IMG/VR virus record: IMGVR_UViG_3300030202_000422
Span: 1 to 58,619 of that record
Strand: one strand, 5' to 3'
DNA length: 58,619 bases
From: a virus
Lineage: Duplodnaviria; Caudoviricetes
Positions 31,619 to 49,189 of this stretch are shown here, piece after piece; within the stretch, counting starts at the first letter, position 1, and the number at the start of each line of letters is the position of its first letter. Both the position numbers and the translations under genes were made by a program. Below the pieces are notes generated by a model. It saw nothing but the letters and a program-made list of their open reading frames with translations, had not been told where the DNA came from and searched no databases.

Positions 31619-34600
31619 CTAAAAGAATCCCTCTTCTTTCACTGCACGTTGGAAGTACGGTGACAGGGTTACGCCGTTGTGCATACGCACATTAGTTGTT
31701 CTCTCGTGAGCTTTCATAGAACGTTCTATAGTTTCGGGGGTAATCAGTAACTTAGGATCTATTTGCGCTGCTCTTGTTTCATTAAATTCAATCATTTGCC
31801 TAGCCGCTTTCTGTGCGCCTTCACGATCCCCGAACCGTTTTGCAAGGTAGTATTTTTTCAATAAGTCAGCACGACGATTTCTTGCCGCACTCTCCATACC
31901 TTTGGCTGCGGATACTTCTGCTTGTTCATTTGTGTATTCATTAGGGGGGAACCCTAATAGTTTAGCGAATATGTCACCACCTGTTATATCATCGTATATA
32001 ACATCGCCACGCCGGGTGAGTATACCTTCATCACGAGGGTAACGTATTACAGCCTGATACGCATTACGCACGGCTCCCGGCATCATATCTTCTAGCCCAC
32101 GTTCTAACTCACCGTCACTTATTTTCTTCGCCCCGTCAACCATCCTGCTAAATATGCTCCATGCAGGACCGCCAAATAAATGGAAGAAAGTTTCTTCTGT
32201 GGAGGGGTTAGAATTAAAACGATCTGCTTCAACTAACAGGTCGGTTAGTTTAACTCTTTCAGATACATCAAGCCCCGTGATTTCAGATAACGCTCCTTTA
32301 AATAATGCGTCATTGTCCAGATACCTACGTACAAGAGTATCTGTATCCTCTTCATACTCTTCTGCAAACAGAGCATCGTACAGCATGGACACTACGCCGT
32401 ATAACGGTAGCCCTTGAACACCCGCGAAAAATAGAGCAGATAAGTGTGTGGCTGCAAGTTGTTTTGCTGCTTCACTTGTTACTGCCTTCGATACTCCCTG
32501 TTTACGTAATACATCAAGGAACTGCATTGCAGTTTTTCCCATTGTGTAGTACATCTGAATACCATAGTTCTTATACATCAAAGCCACACGGAGTGCGCCA
32601 GCACGAGCGAATCTAGGTCCAGTTTCTAAAGTAGCACCGCCGTTTATTTGTTGCGTCTCATACACAGCTTCTTCTGCTGCCTGCTGTCGTTGTTCGGCTG
32701 TAGCATTTTGCGATTTGTTGTTTGTAATCTTATCGAGGGCTAAATTATACGAAGCCACCAGAGCTACTTGCCTATTCATCATTTCTGCTTGGTGAAACAT
32801 CAACGCTGATGCGCCTGTAGCCATGTCTCCTTTACTTAGTTCCCTTCCCGAAGAGTCCACACTAAGTGTGTCAGCTATAAACGAAGAGTTAAGATGTCCT
32901 CTCCTCGATGCTAGTTGCATGAGTGGGCGGAGCCTGTTTAGTTCTGCTTTTGTTTCAGCGGGTAAATCTAAATCCTTCCTGACAGAATATACCAAGTCAC
33001 CAGTGTTGGAATCTCTAGTAAACGTGTAATAGTTATCAAGGCTCATTAGTGACGCACCAGAGTCTTGTATCGCCTCAAATTTATTTTTAAGGCCACTCTT
33101 AGCAAACGCTTCTTTCATTGATGTCGGGCTAGCGTCGTCTCCAAACAGTGTTTTTGAAGCACGATTCGTCGGTGTCCCGGCGAACAATTTAGTAGCATCT
33201 TTAATGGCAGTACCTGCTTTGCCGAATCCAAACTTACCCGCAAGCATGGGGTATGCGAATAGTGGTATCTGCGACAGGTTTACTAGTGCAGAAGATGTGT
33301 TAAATCCTATCGTCCAAAAGAAAGCCATACGGTTGGCTCGTTTAGCCCACTCATCTTTAGCTGGTTGTATTGCAAATCCTGCTCTATTACGAAGTTCGTC
33401 AGCAACAGCACTGGTAGCGGCTGGTGTACCTGCCAACTTCTCGTCTATTTCTCGCATTGTTTTAGATATTTCAGCACTGTTTTTTATGCGTTCTGTTTGC
33501 CGCGTTAGATCATAGGCTTTGGTTCTAGCAGCTTGTAGTGCTCCTACATCGTAACCCTCGGTTTTCTTTCTTCGTACTAGTGCTTTTGCAAAAGAAGACT
33601 CGGGTAATTCTTCTATAAACAACCTAGCCACTTGTTCTCTGGTCTTACTGTCTACGCCTTGTATGTTGAGCGTATTAAATAGTTGCGCTATGAATGAACC
33701 TGATGGCGCATTTTCATAAGATTTGGAATCACTATTGTCCCAAGGTTCTACTTTTAGTCCTTGATTAGCATAGTCCTCCATAGCCTGCACTCGATCCCCT
33801 GCGGTTTGATAAGCAAACACAGCGGGCTTATCCTTATCTCCTTTTGGATCTCGCACCGCTAACCAATAACTGCCAGATCGTGTCAGAGGAAAGTACGGCT
33901 CTATACTGGTGTTCTCTAGCATACGTGCTAGTAATTCGTTCTTTAGATTATTCTTAGCGCCATCTTCTATGTCCAACCCGTCGATACGCCCACGCAACGC
34001 ACCTAATAAGTCGTTATATCGATCTTTATAAAATTTACGTAAATTATCGTAAGTTTTTCTACCACCTTCTCCAAACTCTTGGCTTGTATATATTTTACGT
34101 AACTTCTTATACACCTCTATCTTGAGTGTTTTTTCTTTACCCTCTATAGTTTGATTCTTATATTTATTCTGCGCTTGTTGAGGATTAAGCGCAGGGTCTA
34201 CTTCATTGATTGTGCTTTCATAAACAAGTGTGTCTAATGCTTCGTTGGCTTTTTGCGATGCTTTATCAGCCCACCTAAACATAGGATCTAATATTTGGCG
34301 TGTTTCTTTTTCTGCTTCAGTCAAACGACCACGCTGCTTTTCTATTGCAGCCATTAGTTTCTTCGCGTCTGCTATACCTGTTGATTCTGCTATATCTTGT
34401 ATTGCTTGGTTAGGCAAAAGCCCTAATCCTACACTTTCTACTTTCTTACCCGCAGGTGTTTGCCTACCTAAAAACCCAGCTTTAAAGTCGCGTACTATTT
34501 TTTCTCTGCCCGCTTTTTCTGACAGCTTTGGTTTTTCTCGTTTTAGGTTTCTTCCTATAGCTGCTACGTCATCTTTTGTAGTCATAGAAAGTAGTTTGGG

Positions 34601-37351
34601 ACCACCAGCAAAAGAAGGTGCAGGGGCTAATATGTCTTCTACCAAACGCTCTACTTCAGATTGTGCCGTCTTATCAAAGCGGAATGGAGATATACCAATA
34701 AAGTCAGACAGCCATCTAAGAAACCGTTGCAGTGCGCTGTTTGGTTGACCTTTTGTATTAATCTTAGCGAGTTCTTTTTGAAAGTCGGGATTACTGAACG
34801 TCTCTGCTACAAACTCTCGTATGTTTTCAAGACCGTATGGACTCTTACCAAGTTCCGCTTTTACATCTGTAAATATCTTATCTAGGTCTTTGACCGCTTT
34901 ACTATTGGGCTGGTTTATTATCTTATCTACGGTCGCAGCGTGCGCTGTTTCATGTAACAAAGTATATGTAGTCAAACCGCCATCTTCGTTTAATATGACT
35001 CTGTTAACGCTAGGAGAAAACAAACCGATAGGTGTCTCTCCTTTCTTTCTCTTAGCTAACAACCGTTGCACGTTTTCTGCTTGTCGAGTATCAAGATCTG
35101 CTATTCGTTGTTGCGGATCTATACGTGCTACATCTACCTCTGTGTTACCAACAAACTCAGATAGTTTCTTTGCTATACGCTTAGTCTTTCGATCAACAGA
35201 TCCGTCAGCTACATCCAGAAGTGCCTGTTTTAAGTTACCTGTACGTATTGTATCCACTATGTTTTGTGGTAACGGTGCATCAATATCTGTATTTGCCGTG
35301 ACAGAAACAAAAGTAGGTTCTGATTTATCTAACTCTTGAAGCAGTTCCGTAGGAGTGATGTTAGGATTTTCTTCTAGCAGTTGTTGTTTTAGTGCGAGTC
35401 TCCTACTCCTCTTATCGGCTACGTCTTCTTTTGTTCTAGCCTGTTCTTCTACCGCTTTAACTTTAACCACAGCATCAGTTGGGCCTGTATCTGCTTCTAA
35501 AAACTTAGCTGCAAACCGCGTTATGCCTGCTGGACCTTTCTGTGTCGCTTTTTCAAATTCCTCTGCTAGCTTTGGATCTTCGCTTATTTTTTGAGCCACC
35601 TCTTTGGCTACTTTTGCACGAGGGGGTCTTCCTGTAGGTGTAACAAGTTCTAGCTGTTCTTCTGGAACCCTTTGTAGAAATCTATTGATACTTGCTTTTG
35701 CTTTACCCGAAGTGTTTTTTCTAGCTGCATATTGTTCTAACTGCTGCACCTGATCGTCTTCTCGTAAGTTCTTATCCGCTAGTCTCTTACGGATCGGCGC
35801 ACTAAGTGGTATGTCTAAACTATCTAACACTTCTTCCGTGGCTATTACAGAATCTACGTCTTCTTGAGACTCGGTAGCGATGCGCCTCTCGGCTGCTTCG
35901 GCCTCCTCTAAGTTTGCGCCTTCGGGTTGTTCTGCTCTTGCTAGTTCAGTTGGAAAAAGATCAGCTTGTTCTCTAGTAGCAATCTCTGCACGCTGCTGAC
36001 CTAGCTGTGCTTCATCTGATACAGGTTGCTCTGTAATCTTCCGTTCTCTATCACGTTGGTTGATTCGAGCTAAAGCTTCTTCTCTTGTTAACGCCTGACC
36101 TTCAAAAGGTTTGGGGTCTAATGCATCCTCTAGTGGAGTTACAGCTAGTGTCTCTCCCGGTATGGTCTCGCCCTCTGGTGCAGGTAGTCCTTGTAGCTGC
36201 GGTCCTATTTTTTCTGGTTCTAGTCCCGGTAGAGGTAGTTGATCTGGTGATACAGCCGCTTCTTTTGAAGCGATATACTCCCCTACTGTTAAATCCTCTG
36301 GTCTTTCTCTTGGGCCACTTACCTCTTCAAATAAATCCCCTTGTCTACCGGGTAATGCATCTGCTGGTAATGTAGGTTCAACATCTTCAGCTACTTCTGG
36401 TGGTGGTCTATCGCCAATACGCCGACCTCTTGTAAACAAGTCAACTACACCCTGTACAATAGCGCCTGCTCCTGCACCGTACCCTGCTGCGGGCGCTAAA
36501 CCTTCTGCTAGGTCTTGATCTATATTGTAACCGCGCTCGATAGCGTTTTGAAAAAACTCAGCCGCTACTTCTTGACCGCCCTCTACACCTGCCGTACCAA
36601 CGGCTCTTCTTACTCGATCACCTAATCCCTCTATTGTCTCAGGACCAAACTTATCTACTAATTTATTAAGTGCAGGCAAGTCAGCCATTTTAACAAAACG
36701 TGCAATTGGCACGAGTTCAGTAAATCCAACTAGTGTACCTAGCAATGTAGCTTCGTTTCTTTCTTCTTCTGTAGCACCTTCTTCTCTTGCTCTTTCACTC
36801 GCTTCACCAGCACCTGCTGCACCTGCTAATGTTAAGCCTGTACCTACTGCGGCAATTCCTGCTCCTGCTATAGGGGCTGCACCTACAGCGGCTACTGGTG
36901 CAGCAATTCCTGCTATTGATCCAAGTGCCTGACCTAGACCATAAGATATACTATCTTGATCGCCACCTTCGGGTGTAAGGTCTCCAAAGAAAGATTTAAT
37001 CTTATCTCTAGCAGCTAGTTCTTCCTCTTCTTCTAATAAAGAAGCTAGTCCCAAACTAGCAATTTCACCTGTACCAACAACCCCTGCGCCGAATCCGCTA
37101 GTTAGGTTGCTGAGTATGCCAGACTCTTCTTTTGGAGCAGTATATAGTTGCGCTATGTTTTGTTGGGCTTGCAGATAATCTTGTTCTGCTTTACGTCTAC
37201 GATCTGCAAAACTAGTAGGCGCACTACTAACACTACGGCTTGTTGCCCGTCGAGCATTTAGTATGTCAACAATATCTTGTTTTGTTGCGCCGGGAGGTAC
37301 GTCTACTGTTTCAGAAGTACCATCTCTTAGAAATACAGTTCTAAGAGCCAT
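31619..37351 (-). CDS. Large internal virion/ejection protein with a zincin-like HExxH motif
   Basis: 1910 aa, last late gene; hydrophobic Gly/Ala segments; LLHETAH..EFVAE. Confidence 0.75.
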   Translation of the reverse strand: MALRTVFLRDGTSETVDVPPGATKQDIVDILNARRATSRSVSSAPTSFADRRRKAEQDYLQAQQNIAQLYTAPKEESGILSNLTSGFGAGVVGTGEIASLGLASLLEEEEELAARDKIKSFFGDLTPEGGDQDSISYGLGQALGSIAGIAAPVAAVGAAPIAGAGIAAVGTGLTLAGAAGAGEASERAREEGATEEERNEATLLGTLVGFTELVPIARFVKMADLPALNKLVDKFGPETIEGLGDRVRRAVGTAGVEGGQEVAAEFFQNAIERGYNIDQDLAEGLAPAAGYGAGAGAIVQGVVDLFTRGRRIGDRPPPEVAEDVEPTLPADALPGRQGDLFEEVSGPRERPEDLTVGEYIASKEAAVSPDQLPLPGLEPEKIGPQLQGLPAPEGETIPGETLAVTPLEDALDPKPFEGQALTREEALARINQRDRERKITEQPVSDEAQLGQQRAEIATREQADLFPTELARAEQPEGANLEEAEAAERRIATESQEDVDSVIATEEVLDSLDIPLSAPIRKRLADKNLREDDQVQQLEQYAARKNTSGKAKASINRFLQRVPEEQLELVTPTGRPPRAKVAKEVAQKISEDPKLAEEFEKATQKGPAGITRFAAKFLEADTGPTDAVVKVKAVEEQARTKEDVADKRSRRLALKQQLLEENPNITPTELLQELDKSEPTFVSVTANTDIDAPLPQNIVDTIRTGNLKQALLDVADGSVDRKTKRIAKKLSEFVGNTEVDVARIDPQQRIADLDTRQAENVQRLLAKRKKGETPIGLFSPSVNRVILNEDGGLTTYTLLHETAHAATVDKIINQPNSKAVKDLDKIFTDVKAELGKSPYGLENIREFVAETFSNPDFQKELAKINTKGQPNSALQRFLRWLSDFIGISPFRFDKTAQSEVERLVEDILAPAPSFAGGPKLLSMTTKDDVAAIGRNLKREKPKLSEKAGREKIVRDFKAGFLGRQTPAGKKVESVGLGLLPNQAIQDIAESTGIADAKKLMAAIEKQRGRLTEAEKETRQILDPMFRWADKASQKANEALDTLVYESTINEVDPALNPQQAQNKYKNQTIEGKEKTLKIEVYKKLRKIYTSQEFGEGGRKTYDNLRKFYKDRYNDLLGALRGRIDGLDIEDGAKNNLKNELLARMLENTSIEPYFPLTRSGSYWLAVRDPKGDKDKPAVFAYQTAGDRVQAMEDYANQGLKVEPWDNSDSKSYENAPSGSFIAQLFNTLNIQGVDSKTREQVARLFIEELPESSFAKALVRRKKTEGYDVGALQAARTKAYDLTRQTERIKNSAEISKTMREIDEKLAGTPAATSAVADELRNRAGFAIQPAKDEWAKRANRMAFFWTIGFNTSSALVNLSQIPLFAYPMLAGKFGFGKAGTAIKDATKLFAGTPTNRASKTLFGDDASPTSMKEAFAKSGLKNKFEAIQDSGASLMSLDNYYTFTRDSNTGDLVYSVRKDLDLPAETKAELNRLRPLMQLASRRGHLNSSFIADTLSVDSSGRELSKGDMATGASALMFHQAEMMNRQVALVASYNLALDKITNNKSQNATAEQRQQAAEEAVYETQQINGGATLETGPRFARAGALRVALMYKNYGIQMYYTMGKTAMQFLDVLRKQGVSKAVTSEAAKQLAATHLSALFFAGVQGLPLYGVVSMLYDALFAEEYEEDTDTLVRRYLDNDALFKGALSEITGLDVSERVKLTDLLVEADRFNSNPSTEETFFHLFGGPAWSIFSRMVDGAKKISDGELERGLEDMMPGAVRNAYQAVIRYPRDEGILTRRGDVIYDDITGGDIFAKLLGFPPNEYTNEQAEVSAAKGMESAARNRRADLLKKYYLAKRFGDREGAQKAARQMIEFNETRAAQIDPKLLITPETIERSMKAHERTTNVRMHNGVTLSPYFQRAVKEEGFF

Positions 37352-44733: not shown

Positions 44734-46574
44734 TACCTTCTCCCGTCAGGCCGCAGTTCTAGTCGCGGTGATCCTAACTGCCATTTAACTCCGGCGTTGC
44801 TGGATTCTATCTTCAAAGCTAATTGTCTGCCTCGTACTCGCAGATCTAGCCTAGATGTAAACGCCTCGATAGGTGCAGTGGCTGTTCTGGTTATAGAGCC
44901 TGTGTTTGTACCGCCTTCTGAGGCTGGTGAGTTACGTCCCGAACCAGAGTTTTGTGCTGCAAACAAAGATAACGTAGCACTAGGGCTTTCTGCTGTAGAC
45001 CCGTCAAAGGTTACGTCTGGATATACTTTTTGTATAAACGCAAACTTGTGACCATCATCTAGGTCAAACTGCGCTGATGTTATAAACGAGCTAATACCTG
45101 CATTAGTGCCTGTCTCGTTATCATCTATACCGTCCTCGTGATTGACTACATTGTTGTTGTAAGTTGCAGCTAGCGGAAAGTCTCTAATACCCGAATCTAT
45201 CCATGCGGTTCTAGCTAAATTACCGTAGTACCAGATATTCTGTTCATAGTTGTATATAGCGTAGCGGTCTATAGTTGTAGAACTAGAAGAACAGTAGAAC
45301 CACCATATTTCACTAAACCCTTCGTTAGTACCTGCAAATACCTGATCGTACTGCTCTTCGTTAAAATCGTTAAATATGTACCGTTTAACCGAACAAGGCA
45401 GCGTTTGCACTCTACCGTCATATCTGTAAAACCCACCTACACCCATCCAATAAGCTACACCGTTTGCGTAGGCCACAGTGTTAGGGGATGCAATAGATAA
45501 GTTCTCTCCAACCGTCTGAGACGACCATACCGCAGGTGCGCCCACATACTGTAACGCATACAAAGCAGAGTCCGTCCAAACCAGTATTTCCTGTCGGCCT
45601 TGTATAGCAGTTATGATTGACGAGCCTTTAGACAACCGCAGATCACCTGCTTGATTAGTGGATGAAGGAGTCCAGTTAAGTGCGTTCTCTTGGTCAGACC
45701 AACGTAACAGCATAGGATCTATATCCGTGCTACCAAGCACATTAGTGCCAAAACAAAATACAAATCGGTTGTCTGATACAAGCACGGTGTTTACTTTAAC
45801 AGGGACGTTAGACGCGCCGGTCTCACTAGATAGCAACACGCCACGAGTTGTTAGCGCATCAGTAGCATCCCAGAAGAATAAGTTACCCCCACGAGCAGCA
45901 AAAATAAGATCTTCACCAAAATTAGATTGAGTCCACAAACGCAGTGCATCAGTAGATGTTACACCTACGCCCCACGTACCCAGACCCCAACCAGCAGCAC
46001 CCCAACCAACTAGCGTTTCTGCAACAGAGGGGCCAGTGTTTATTTGGTACACAGCGGATACAGACCCCCCACCCGAAGCTGAAGAACTTGCAGCCTCACT
46101 TGCTGTTATGGTGTACGTGTTTCCTGTTAAATATGTTATCTGAAACTCACCATTAAGCGTAAGGCCACCTACAGCAGACGCTCCACTAAACGTTACAAAG
46201 TCATCGTCTATGTATCCACCCGCAGCATCTGTAACTGTTACAGTGGTAGATCCACTTACCGTGGTAAAAGGGTCAGTAAGCGATACAGTGGCTCGTATGG
46301 GGGTAATGTCATAATACGTTCCACCCTGTTCTATGTAGAACTTTAGATTGGTGCCTACACCTAATAGCTTCTGACTACCCAACGTAACCCAAGAAAACAA
46401 CGATCTAGCAATACCTAAAAACGAGTTGGTAGATATGCGGTTCCACCCACCTATCTTTTCCGGCATACCAGAGCGAAACCTTATCTTGTCACATTCGTAC
46501 CAGCCGCCTTCACTCGTATAACGAGTGTTCTCTCTATCTACTCCCGGCTTAAATACGAACTTCTGTAAGGTCAT
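44733..46574 (-). CDS. Tail tubular/nozzle (P22 gp10/T7 gp12-like stabilisation) protein
   Basis: 613 aa beta-rich; FKPGV..KIRFRSGMPEKIGGW; RWSDQE; ends PDGRR. Confidence 0.75.
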   Translation of the reverse strand: MTLQKFVFKPGVDRENTRYTSEGGWYECDKIRFRSGMPEKIGGWNRISTNSFLGIARSLFSWVTLGSQKLLGVGTNLKFYIEQGGTYYDITPIRATVSLTDPFTTVSGSTTVTVTDAAGGYIDDDFVTFSGASAVGGLTLNGEFQITYLTGNTYTITASEAASSSASGGGSVSAVYQINTGPSVAETLVGWGAAGWGLGTWGVGVTSTDALRLWTQSNFGEDLIFAARGGNLFFWDATDALTTRGVLLSSETGASNVPVKVNTVLVSDNRFVFCFGTNVLGSTDIDPMLLRWSDQENALNWTPSSTNQAGDLRLSKGSSIITAIQGRQEILVWTDSALYALQYVGAPAVWSSQTVGENLSIASPNTVAYANGVAYWMGVGGFYRYDGRVQTLPCSVKRYIFNDFNEEQYDQVFAGTNEGFSEIWWFYCSSSSTTIDRYAIYNYEQNIWYYGNLARTAWIDSGIRDFPLAATYNNNVVNHEDGIDDNETGTNAGISSFITSAQFDLDDGHKFAFIQKVYPDVTFDGSTAESPSATLSLFAAQNSGSGRNSPASEGGTNTGSITRTATAPIEAFTSRLDLRVRGRQLALKIESSNAGVKWQLGSPRLELRPDGRR

Positions 46575-46996
46575 TCTTGATAATCACCTGTTCTAATCAT
46601 TTCAGTGACACGTATTGCACGTTGTCCTACCTGAGATGCCCATCTACTATCTAAAAACTCATCGGCAGCATTGTCATATTCTTGCCTAGACATAGCCTCG
46701 ATTGCCTTTACAAAGCCTCGTAAACGACTCAAACCCAGATTAAAGCACATATCTATCATAGCCGCTTGTCTTACTTCATCTAACGCAGGGAACCAAAAAT
46801 ATGCAGCGCCTAATTCTCCTTTAACACGTTCTACATCGTTTATGAGCAGTAGGTTTATCTCTTCGTTATTGAGACCCAAACCACCTTCTTCATCTATGTT
46901 TCTACCTACACCTATCGTCCATTTACCAGCCGTGCATTGGTACGCATGAGATTTAACGCCCTCATGCAGTTTTATCATCTTTAATAATCTTTCCAT
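46571..46996 (-). CDS. Endolysin, T4-like lysozyme (GH24)
   Basis: Catalytic E-x8-C-x5-T (HEGVKSHAYQCTAGKWT), DMCFNLG, SRWASQVGQRA. Confidence 0.9.
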   Translation of the reverse strand: MERLLKMIKLHEGVKSHAYQCTAGKWTIGVGRNIDEEGGLGLNNEEINLLLINDVERVKGELGAAYFWFPALDEVRQAAMIDMCFNLGLSRLRGFVKAIEAMSRQEYDNAADEFLDSRWASQVGQRAIRVTEMIRTGDYQE

Positions 46997-47386
46997 TTAT
47001 TTCTCTCTGCTTACGCCTTGTACTTTTTCGTAAGATCTCATTGCTCCAAGGCCGAGCATACCCATCATTACAGGAACGAGCAGGGTGGTGTCCACTTCTG
47101 GCACATCAATCCAAATACCTATAATGTTTGCTAAGATCACGTTGTAAAAGAGGCCCAACGCACACACCCAGCCAATGCAGGGTCTCCACCCAGCAACAAA
47201 TAACGACTTATGTGTAGCCTCTGCTTTGTTTATCTCAAGTTGACCTTTAAGCGCCTCTTGAGCATGGCGCTCTGACATCGTAGCTATCTCGTGAGCAAGA
47301 GCAGCTTTTTGATCTTTGTCTTCGATAAACTTGTCTAACAGACCTGTAACTGGTCCGACAAGCTGTGTAACGATACTCATGCCCAC
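46997..47386 (-). CDS. Holin (3TM, GTA-type family)
   Basis: AGWRPCIGWVC..GMLGLGAMRSYEK; adjacent to the endolysin. Confidence 0.85.
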   Translation of the reverse strand: MGMSIVTQLVGPVTGLLDKFIEDKDQKAALAHEIATMSERHAQEALKGQLEINKAEATHKSLFVAGWRPCIGWVCALGLFYNVILANIIGIWIDVPEVDTTLLVPVMMGMLGLGAMRSYEKVQGVSREK

Positions 47387-47748: not shown

Positions 47749-47969
47749 ACAGTCACCAAAATGTGTTGTCCTGTTGCTTTCGGAGTCGTTTCGCTCAACC
47801 CACCGTTTTTATACAAGTAAGTTTTTTGATCGTAGTAAGTTGTAACAACCTCTCTATGTCTATTTGTTTCTCTGACTTGCAACCTTTCCGTTTCGATCTT
47901 GTGTATTTGATGTTTTGCATTCGGCGGTTGCGCTTGAATGCTGTTAGGAAAAGGCGGTATGTCAGTCAT
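47745..47969 (-). CDS. Hypothetical protein
   Basis: 74 aa, overlapping both neighbours. Confidence 0.55.
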   Translation of the reverse strand: MTDIPPFPNSIQAQPPNAKHQIHKIETERLQVRETNRHREVVTTYYDQKTYLYKNGGLSETTPKATGQHILVTV

Positions 47970-48225
47970 CTTTATTTTTTATCTTTGGATCTCGAAAAAT
48001 ATAGTTACCTTTCCCTGCTTCGCTTTGCGGTATAAGCCTTACTTCACAATACGCATCAAACTTACTTGTCTTCCGACCAACCACATGGTTATGAACATGA
48101 GTAGACTGCATAACTAAGGCGTCACGGTACTCAATGCAACTGGTTAATTCTTGGAATGCAAGCTCTACCCCAGTTTTGTTACCGCCTGAGTCCAACATAA
48201 TCAGCATAAAGATCATTAACGTCAT
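47962..48225 (-). CDS. Hypothetical protein with a hydrophobic N-terminus
   Basis: MTLMIFMLIML; ATGA overlap. Confidence 0.6.
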   Translation of the reverse strand: MTLMIFMLIMLDSGGNKTGVELAFQELTSCIEYRDALVMQSTHVHNHVVGRKTSKFDAYCEVRLIPQSEAGKGNYIFRDPKIKNKDD

Positions 48226-48617
48226 ATACGTCTTTTCTTTTGGATGGCTTGAGTTTTTTCAGCCTGTGGCTCGACCAGATCCCAAGTAAGCATTTCTATA
48301 TCAATCTGATGTGCTGTACCTAAAACTCTTGGCATGGTGTTTCTCACGTAGATATACGCCCCATACCCGCACTGTTGAAAGTTAAACTTGAGCCAATCCA
48401 TTGCCACTTCATGCCGTTTGGCAGGTGGTTGTACTAGTCGTAAGTTATTCCACTCTCGCAGATCACAAAACAGATTAGGATTTTCGGGGTCGTATTCTAC
48501 TGAGCCTGCTTGATCATCAGTTCGATCAACGTCTGTAGCTTCGCGTCCGAGTCTCGTGCTGTCTCGTTCATCTGTGCAAGCGATGTCGTTATCTGATCTA
48601 TCGCCTGTGCATTCAGC
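48222..48617 (-). CDS. -1 frame extension of 48497..48784 (predicted frameshift product, 187 aa in total)
   Basis: Frame stays open from 48638 to 48222 with no ATG/SD start in its 5' part; entered at G GGA AAG (48623-48617). Confidence 0.55.
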   Translation of the reverse strand, partial: AECTGDRSDNDIACTDERDSTRLGREATDVDRTDDQAGSVEYDPENPNLFCDLREWNNLRLVQPPAKRHEVAMDWLKFNFQQCGYGAYIYVRNTMPRVLGTAHQIDIEMLTWDLVEPQAEKTQAIQKKRRI

Positions 48618-48784
48618 TTTCCCGTTGTATCGGCCTGTTCAACCTTTACCTTAATTTCTGCGACTTCATCAGCCGTAGCAGCAGCTTGTGCCTGCATAGA
48701 TCCCCATGCTATTGCACCAGATACTAATGCTGCACCTATGGGTAATGCCCAAGTAGGTACTTTAATTGAGTTACCATCGCTCAT
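48497..48784 (-). CDS. Membrane-anchored coiled-coil protein (i-spanin-like topology)
   Basis: AGGAG RBS; TM WALPIGAALVSGAIAWGSM then coiled coil; in the lysis region. Confidence 0.7.
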   Translation of the reverse strand: MSDGNSIKVPTWALPIGAALVSGAIAWGSMQAQAAATADEVAEIKVKVEQADTTGKLNAQAIDQITTSLAQMNETARDSDAKLQTLIELMIKQAQ

Positions 48785-48785
48785 G

Positions 48786-49007
48786 TTAAGCTCCTAAGAA
48801 CTGGGGAACCAACAGGCTCCCGATAATTAAAATTATTACGCCCCATAACATTCGCTCGATGCGGTCAAATCTTCTTGACCCATCGGTTAGTCTCTCCTCA
48901 ATCCTTTCGTAACGCAAAGCGCACTCTCTTTCATGTGCATTTATTTCTTGCAAGGCTTTTTGCCCCTGATCATCCATACCCATTGCTTTTGCAAGACCAT
49001 CATCCAC
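48786..49007 (-). CDS. Coiled coil plus C-terminal TM protein (XhlA-like)
   Basis: HERECALRYERIE..MLWGVIILIIGSLLV. Confidence 0.7.
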   Translation of the reverse strand: MDDGLAKAMGMDDQGQKALQEINAHERECALRYERIEERLTDGSRRFDRIERMLWGVIILIIGSLLVPQFLGA

Positions 49008-49009
49008 GA

Positions 49010-49189
49010 TTACTTCTCAGTAGGTGCTTGCTGCTTGGCCTTACCTATCGTCAGCGACATATACTCAATAATTGGGTAAACATACTTACCCATAAAGGCA
49101 TCGTCTTTAGGCGTTGGGGTAGCCGCAGTAACTGCACTGGCTATTGTGACAACCGTAGTAACAAGTGTCCAAATTTCCATGAAATCCAT
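49010..49189 (-). CDS. Small membrane protein, 59 aa, not in the ORF track; holin-like
   Basis: TAATG coupling; MDFMEIWTLVTTVVTIASAVTAATPTPKDD...IGKAK. Confidence 0.7.
   Translation of the reverse strand: MDFMEIWTLVTTVVTIASAVTAATPTPKDDAFMGKYVYPIIEYMSLTIGKAKQQAPTEK

Follow-up and report, generated by a model that had tools for sequence, protein, structure and literature searches.

A lysis-cassette membrane gene of marine podovirus-like phages with a predicted programmed −1 ribosomal frameshift into a conserved two-cysteine domain

In tailed phages, programmed ribosomal frameshifts are known from tail assembly chaperones and from some capsid genes. The gpG and gpGT products of phage lambda, tail assembly chaperones, arise by a −1 frameshift on the heptamer G GGA AAG that needs no strong downstream structure, whereas the tau and gamma products of Escherichia coli dnaX depend on a frameshift on A AAA AAG that is accompanied by a strong upstream Shine-Dalgarno (SD) sequence and a downstream hairpin and that truncates the protein. 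A choice made in translation also operates in lambda lysis, where the holin and antiholin S105/S107 come from alternative starts and differ by two residues. Here we describe a small membrane-protein gene, gene0, in the lysis cassette of a 58.6-kilobase (kb) metagenome-assembled virus record of IMG/VR (IMGVR_UViG_3300030202_000422; its 58,619 nucleotides (nt) are referred to as the window). Comparison of gene0 with its relatives indicates that a programmed −1 frameshift very probably yields two membrane-anchored isoforms, of 95 and 187 amino acids (aa).

The locus resembles lambda gpG/gpGT in that it has the same heptamer, a predicted major short and minor long product with a common N-terminus, and an extension open reading frame (ORF) without a start. 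Unlike gpG/gpGT, gene0 encodes a small membrane-anchored protein of the lysis cassette of a podovirus-like phage and not a tail chaperone, the two frames overlap over a long stretch (40–60 codons) that would form a disordered linker, and both the sequence and the position of the slip site differ between clades. The dnaX heptamer recurs in one clade of relatives, B1, and in several distant relatives, which have A AAA AAG in register (GTA AAA AAG in B1); in contrast to dnaX, no conserved stimulator was found here and the frameshift would lengthen the protein. As with S105/S107, one membrane gene of a lysis cassette would give two isoforms by a translational choice, but here the choice would be a frameshift and the difference a 131-residue extension. 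There is also a likeness to overlapped two-component spanins of the Rz/Rz1 type, in that a second ORF overlaps the 3′ half of a small gene for a helical protein with an N-terminal transmembrane (TM) segment in another frame and passes its stop; however, the overlapping ORF of our locus has no start, signal or lipobox and would be fused to the first protein instead of encoding a separate lipoprotein, and at the profile level gene0 resembles Rz-like families only weakly. In the survey by Kongari et al. (2018, PMC6139136), the −1 frame encodes the outer-membrane spanin (o-spanin) in 116 cases. In the RNA phage MS2, expression of the lysis gene depends on frameshifting in the coat gene (PMC10885494), which is a different mechanism. 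Full-text searches, with subscription journals and supplements outside their scope, found no paper describing frameshifting for a holin, a spanin or any other lysis-cassette gene among double-stranded DNA phages. The predicted recoding is of a known type; the class of gene that carries it is new, and so is the domain family.

All coordinates below refer to the minus strand of the window. Codons 54–56 of gene0 (48784..48497) read ACG GGA AAG (Thr54-Gly55-Lys56; 48625..48617), so that the G GGA AAG reported in the preliminary description of this DNA is indeed present and stands in the X XXY YYZ register. That description had further stated that the −1 frame opens five codons before this site, stays open for 131 codons to 48222, ends in an ATGA overlap with the next gene and lacks a good internal SD sequence or start, and all of this holds: a TGA closes the −1 frame five codons ahead of the heptamer codons, after which the frame is open to the TGA at 48224..48222; it runs past the zero-frame stop of gene0 (TAG, 48499..48497), and its earliest ATG, GTG or TTG is the GTG at 48407, with no SD sequence ahead of it as judged by eye. 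A slip at the heptamer would join 56 residues of gene0 to 131 residues of the −1 frame, giving 187 aa with the junction ...TTGK-AECTGDR. AlphaFold2 (AF2) places helices of the 95-aa product at residues 13–32, 45–51, 59–71 and 79–94, at low confidence (predicted local distance difference test, pLDDT, 49). The window contains nine copies of GGGAAAG where 5.8 ± 2.6 would be expected, and the heptamer taken alone is not significant; the significance of the slip site comes from its conservation in relatives and not from the heptamer count alone. Two other motifs of this kind lie nearby. A G GTA AAG, the slip motif of clade B2, is in register at codon 45 of gene0 (48645..48651), where a slip in the window would reach a −1 stop after three codons, and a further GGGAAAG lies at 48009..48015 inside the next gene (which encodes 87 aa) in the register XXX YYY Z (GGG AAA G), which by the usual rule is not a slip site.

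To compare the locus across relatives we scanned IMG/VR, which gave 78 loci with a relative of gene0 and 10 with the downstream part. Together with the window the gene0 loci make 79 entries, five of which run off the end of their contig, leaving 74 usable. The layout is kept in 70 of these 74, with the −1 frame open over 38–102 codons of overlap and over 91–93 codons past the gene0 stop, and more distant relatives reached through the database proteins P0005, P0006 and P0010 have the same layout. The remaining four (L048 and L050–L052, ~48% identical) have neither extension nor slip motif. In these, gene0 (99 aa) is followed 3 nt on by a gene for a 70-aa relative of the 87-aa protein, and L048 and L052 also have a 141–144-aa protein with a C-terminal TM segment ahead of the holin; the 144-aa protein of L048 (group C) was considered as a stand-in for the missing domain and rejected (hhalign probability 0.9%).

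One line of evidence for translation of the −1 frame is the absence of stops from it. Between the slip site and the gene0 stop, none of the 62 unique sequences that carry the extension has a −1 stop, as the frameshift proposed in the preliminary description requires. When codons were resampled synonymously with phage codon usage the frame stayed open in ~2% of draws (P ~0.02), with a mean of 3.1 stops, and as controls, stops number 5.9 in the +1 frame of the overlap and 2.6 in the −1 frame ahead of the site. For a −1 stop to arise, a T-ending codon must be followed by one that begins with AA, AG or GA. At these stop-creating junctions the preceding codon ends in T in 0 of 606 cases within the overlap and in 164 of 538 upstream of it, whereas at harmless junctions the corresponding counts are 293 of 1275 and 634 of 1843; the contrast falls within one set of sequences, that is, between overlap and upstream part of the same genes. 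The zero-frame C-terminus of gene0 is itself conserved.

The slip motif is likewise retained. A motif-based census gave 68 complete unique sequences, and in all 68 a slip motif stands in register. Canonical heptamers account for 46 of the 68 (G GGA AAG in 18, G GGA AAA in 3, A AAA AAG in 21, A AAA AAC in 3 and A AAA AAA in 1). Group A, the clade of the window (19 unique sequences), has ACG and GGA, both four-fold degenerate, without exception (19/19), while nearby Thr, Ala, Val and Leu codons vary. In group B, with 38 unique sequences, the first A comes from a Val codon that is GTA in all 38. In the gene0 alignment the slip motifs fall at differing columns, over a span of about ten codons, and in most relatives the −1 frame opens 2–11 codons ahead of the motif. 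A motif that shifts in place and sequence and yet stays in register just past the opening of the −1 frame is what selection for frameshifting predicts. L028–L030, whose −1 frame is open from one end of gene0 to the other (102 codons) and has a GTG close to its beginning, still keep G GGA AAA.

Past the gene0 stop the −1 frame encodes a conserved domain. An AF2 model from a 65-row alignment has residues 1–40 of the −1 product, corresponding to the overlap, disordered (pLDDT <50) and residues 41–120 folded (pLDDT 82–97), with helices at residues 55–63, 67–80, 87–104 and 107–114, and the fold takes in the part that lies upstream of any start. We estimated pN/pS, the ratio of nonsynonymous to synonymous differences, from p-distances among 15 representatives, with synonymous sites near saturation: it is 0.38 over the 31 codons from the gene0 stop to the GTG of the window, 0.41 over the rest of the domain and 1.16 over the overlap read in the −1 frame. 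Judged from these alignments, slip motif, open frame and domain are all under selection. The extension had been described as carrying four cysteines; the family instead has a two-Cys domain, with C53 (at least 90%, in FCDLREW) and C85 (invariant, in QQCGYG) conserved, and the two Cys of the overlap linker fall outside conserved columns. Of the 68 sequences, 62 have their earliest canonical −1-frame start only past the first conserved Cys, anywhere between +2 and +44 codons. Public gene calls for the −1 ORF are fragments of 37–83 aa or begin at chance ATGs inside gene0, and the domain is at present misannotated as such 37–83-aa fragments. Structure and profile searches with the domain gave little: Foldseek against the PDB returned nothing at E <= 0.001, VIA-align in its wide mode a best Z of 5.3 that is unspecific for a helical bundle, a PDB profile search nothing below E 0.77, and the protein atlas short unnamed clusters only, with no structure. 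In BFVD the model matched only three uncharacterised proteins of 90–103 aa from uncultured Caudovirales. Among 50,697 phage records, neither the DNA of the region (distant-mode search) nor gene0 (tblastn) found a match.

Searching the same 50,697 phage records with the domain gave a sole match, MW202825.1 (Bacteriophage sp.), which the hhalign comparison places at 97.3% (E 1.7e-11), the match beginning at the first conserved Cys. This homologue has the same domain and the same lysis setting as the window but is a separate 90-aa gene with no frameshift: its ORF has a hydrophobic leader of its own directly before the first Cys and a GTGA-coupled start, and it lies directly upstream of a gene transfer agent (GTA)-type holin and a lysozyme. 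Three IMG/VR relatives of the MW202825.1 form keep the leader at the protein level. These findings support the notion that the domain is exported or membrane-tethered and that it is part of lysis cassettes. Two database proteins, P0024 (162 aa) and P0025 (164 aa), join the N-terminus of gene0 in frame to the domain, at different points. They are only suggestive as support. No P0024-like fusion was found in IMG/VR, where 55 of 55 loci have the frameshifted layout, and no fused form longer than 259 aa was found. A third protein, P0002 (236 aa), in which a single frame spans the 73-aa protein encoded upstream of gene0, the N-terminus of gene0 and the domain, has a garbled end, probably comes from an indel-rich assembly and was not used as evidence; it illustrates how such loci become mis-called.

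The preliminary description had also proposed a hairpin about 5 nt downstream of the heptamer. A stem is present in the window, near the register that had been claimed: in the ViennaRNA fold CAGGCGAU (48607..48600) pairs with AUCGCUUG (48584..48577), and the 74-nt stretch folds at -13.4 kcal/mol (z -1.73; 10 of 200 shuffles as good). It has no conserved or covarying counterpart across groups A and B, being kept in the nearest relatives only, and folding of individual sequences gives z from +0.5 to -2.0. The overlap is coding in both frames here, which limits covariation.

Several observations weigh against a programmed frameshift or against parts of our account of it. The main weakness at the slip site is that 22 of the 68 motifs are non-canonical (G GTA AAG in 21, G GCA AAG in 1) and keep only the tetramer A AAG in register. 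No conserved or covarying RNA structure is apparent, the consensus folds reaching -2.41 kcal/mol in group A and -2.64 kcal/mol in group B with almost no covariation; Rfam has no match in 47900..49100, and inspection by eye revealed nothing like an SD stimulator. Given the kinship among the unique sequences, the counts given above are not counts of independent events. Some lineages have a −1-frame ATG inside gene0 (P0018–P0023) or the start in L028–L030 mentioned above, and internal initiation is possible there; a canonical start precedes the first Cys in six of the 68 sequences. The fused proteins P0024 and P0025 were each found once, on short contigs, and may be misassemblies. The charges flanking the TM segment are not decisive for topology, the N-in/C-out orientation being inferred from the leader of the homologue and the conserved Cys pair. 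As to function, neither the domain nor the −1 product as a whole has a match in Pfam or PHROGs.

What else might account for an open −1 frame at this position? The window is metagenome-assembled, and an assembly indel or a recent pseudogene could in principle have left a broken gene. The same layout is found, however, in the 68 complete unique sequences, the zero-frame C-terminus of gene0 is conserved, and contigs from four runs of different studies, aligned to the stretch, have no 1-nt indel, the only length difference being an insertion of 6 nt, in frame, behind 48497; the slip site is spanned by a contig of 888 nt with 0 differences. The concern that reads might reveal an assembly indel thus finds nothing in these contigs, and we regard artefact or decay as practically negligible. 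A different route to the same two proteins would be slippage of RNA polymerase on a run of A or G, with the long form made from edited mRNAs. Such slippage could be entertained for clade B1, where six A follow one another (GTA AAA AAG), and for one lineage with at least seven (A AAA AAA), but the runs in the GGGAAAG of the window are only three bases long, far below the lengths at which transcriptional slippage is known, and in every clade the motif is kept in the codon register suited to re-pairing of tRNAs. A contig from an RNA library, derived from a relative, covers the slip site without gaps or indel; it is not proof of transcription and is weak evidence here, contigs dropping rare variants. 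Transcriptional slippage therefore seems to us a very improbable source of the long form.

The domain might, alternatively, be the product of a separate gene whose start is an internal ATG, GTG or TTG (in the window, the GTG at 48407) or else a non-canonical codon close to 48497; that the overlap is open would then be incidental. That public gene callers annotate 37–83-aa products, that an ATG lies 7 codons past the first Cys in 10 of 68 sequences and a start ahead of this Cys in 6 of 68, and that the MW202825.1 homologue stands alone would all fit such a gene. Its start would nevertheless not be conserved in position (+2 to +44 codons, 62 of 68), the segment upstream of the starts is under purifying selection equal to that on the rest and lies within the confident fold and the hhalign match, no SD sequence was seen at GTG 48407, and both the 0 of 606 stop-creating codons and the invariant slip-site codons would be left unexplained, which makes a separate gene distinctly unlikely. 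Re-initiation in the −1 frame on a non-AUG codon right after the gene0 stop (48499..48497) would release the domain free and unanchored. The folded domain does begin almost at this stop, and tight coupling of starts and stops is the rule in the cassette; but no ATG, GTG or TTG lies near the stop in the window or in the representatives read by eye, no purpose would be left for the conserved slip motifs or for the 40–60 codons that are open ahead of the stop, and a free cytoplasmic domain is a poor fit to two conserved Cys and to the leader of the homologue. We give re-initiation little credence. The central claim of the preliminary description, a −1 frameshift giving 95-aa and 187-aa forms with a common anchor, is on the other hand backed by the frame that is open in 62 of 62 sequences and by the motif that is in register in 68 of 68.

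Under programmed frameshifting, most ribosomes would read gene0 to the TAG at 48499..48497 and make the 95-aa protein, presumably the major isoform, with its N-terminal membrane helix and helical tail. A minority would slip back one base on G GGA AAG (48623..48617) by tandem tRNA slippage of the kind known for lambda gpG/gpGT, at an efficiency that is probably low, and would continue in the −1 frame to 48222. The resulting 187-aa protein would consist of the shared anchor and first 56 residues, a disordered linker of ~40 residues and a four-helix domain of ~80 residues with two Cys. If the anchor is oriented N-in/C-out, the domain would be tethered in the periplasm, and the frameshift would supply in the family of the window the anchor that the leader supplies in the stand-alone homologue. 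The two forms would co-assemble through their shared part and work jointly within the lysis cassette, to which the long form would contribute a periplasmic module in sub-stoichiometric amount. The start of the 87-aa gene overlaps the −1 stop by 4 nt in 55 of 61 loci and by 1 nt in 5, with a 1-nt gap in 1. Since the start sits on the −1 stop in 55 of the 61 loci, termination on the ATGA may couple translation of the 87-aa gene to ribosomes that have frameshifted; in the clade without the extension the relative of this gene is coupled to gene0 instead.

As for what the two isoforms would do, a spanin-like disruption of the envelope, which the preliminary description had suggested as a two-component system from one gene, is possible, and a role in lysis timing or as an accessory is possible in the same measure; some other role is also to be considered, with somewhat less than an even chance. 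gene0 has no Pfam match. Its PHROG matches are weak, to a holin family (E 1.6e-4) and to phrog_5151, phrog_739 and phrog_7686 (Rz-like spanin; E 1e-3 to 7e-3), and phrog_739 (Rz-like spanin) matches 6 of 16 relatives, with a best E of 3.6e-4; a holin family scores as well. The cassette had been said to lack a recognisable o-spanin, and a lipobox regular-expression scan of all six frames of the lysis region agrees, finding no ORF with a lipoprotein signal on the coding strand and antisense chance matches only. We rejected an o-spanin reading of the −1 ORF, which has no start, signal, hydrophobic leader or lipobox, and of the nearby small ORFs. A unimolecular spanin (u-spanin) reading does not fit the long form, which has no lipoprotein signal and whose sole TM segment is N-terminal. 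It is conceivable, though we consider it rather improbable, that phages without an o-spanin lipoprotein use a single recoded gene for disruption of the outer envelope, the short isoform serving as inner-membrane scaffold, the frameshifted isoform adding a tethered periplasmic domain that engages wall or outer membrane at a fixed low ratio set by the slip, and the frameshift also gating the 87-aa protein. Were this so, two-component and unimolecular spanins would be joined by a third genetic solution for the spanin-type function, and lysis would offer a case in which recoding controls stoichiometry.

The layout is widespread in marine viromes (68 complete unique sequences; runs of 11 studies). 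The window stretch or parts of it are present in 20 runs of these 11 studies, five of them with at least half of the sampled words, under marine, seawater or aquatic-virus labels. The family amounts to a natural experiment, in that at least three slip motifs occur in it, the extension is missing from one clade and the domain also exists alone behind a leader of its own, and it defines a new small domain family, putatively periplasmic, that is tied to lysis cassettes. It may offer a testable way of learning how the envelope of abundant marine Gram-negative hosts is breached by phages that have no recognisable spanins.

Scans against PHROG and Pfam place gene0 in a lysis neighbourhood within the structural module of a podovirus-like phage (Table 1). 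Holin and lysozyme lie 1.1–2.2 kb downstream of gene0 on the same strand, and the neighbourhood is alike in relatives. Around gene0 are an SNase-like nuclease and several tiny membrane proteins, and upstream are a tail spike and a 2OG-Fe(II) oxygenase; none of the 27 ORFs scanned matched a tail tube, sheath or tape-measure protein. Compared by terminase (TerL), the cultured phages that come closest are HTVC027P and HTVC023P, both pelagiphages (phages of Pelagibacter), at 45–47% identity; gene0 is absent from them. A scan of the genome contigs for prophage or host clues found nothing.

Table 1 Features of the gene0 locus and its lysis neighbourhood, in window coordinates.
Feature	Coordinates	Strand	Remarks
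gene0, zero-frame product 95 aa	48497..48784	−	ORF list; N-terminal hydrophobic helix (~residues 13–32), then helical segments
Slippery heptamer G GGA AAG	48617..48623	−	X XXY YYZ register; Thr54-Gly55-Lys56
Overlap part of −1 frame, 40 codons, AECTGDR...QAGSV	48498..48617	−	predicted disordered linker of long isoform; kept open, sequence not conserved
C-terminal domain of long isoform, ~91 codons + stop	48222..48497	−	predicted four-helix fold, two conserved Cys, no conserved start codon
Local hairpin, 8-base-pair stem and 15-nt loop	48577..48607	−	begins 9 nt past heptamer; possible weak stimulator
Next gene, 87 aa	47962..48225	−	short hydrophobic N-terminus, two invariant Cys; ATG overlaps −1 stop (ATGA at 48225..48222)
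Three-TM holin	46997..47386	−	Pfam GTA_holin_3TM E 7e-17; PHROG holin E 4e-35
T4-type lysozyme	46571..46996	−	Pfam Phage_lysozyme E 1.1e-13; PHROG endolysin E 1.9e-21
Upstream cassette gene, 73 aa, C-terminal TM	48786..49007	−	ORF list

In the 87-aa protein the invariant cysteines are C30 and C60 (39 sequences). A conserved L-T-S-C or L-T-G-C of this protein matches the lipobox consensus, but its placement, ~15 polar residues past the hydrophobic stretch, is atypical. In the clade that lacks the extension, the relative of the 87-aa gene directly behind gene0 has the position of a 'separated' o-spanin. A very large ORF of 1910 aa (31619..37351, minus strand) has PHROG matches to DarB-like antirestriction proteins and to very large virion proteins. 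The 73-aa protein has a conserved H-E-x-x-C helix as well as its C-terminal TM segment, and look-alikes, judged by eye, are present in the same cassette of group C (L048 3497..3682) and of MW202825.1 (L107 1522..1791).

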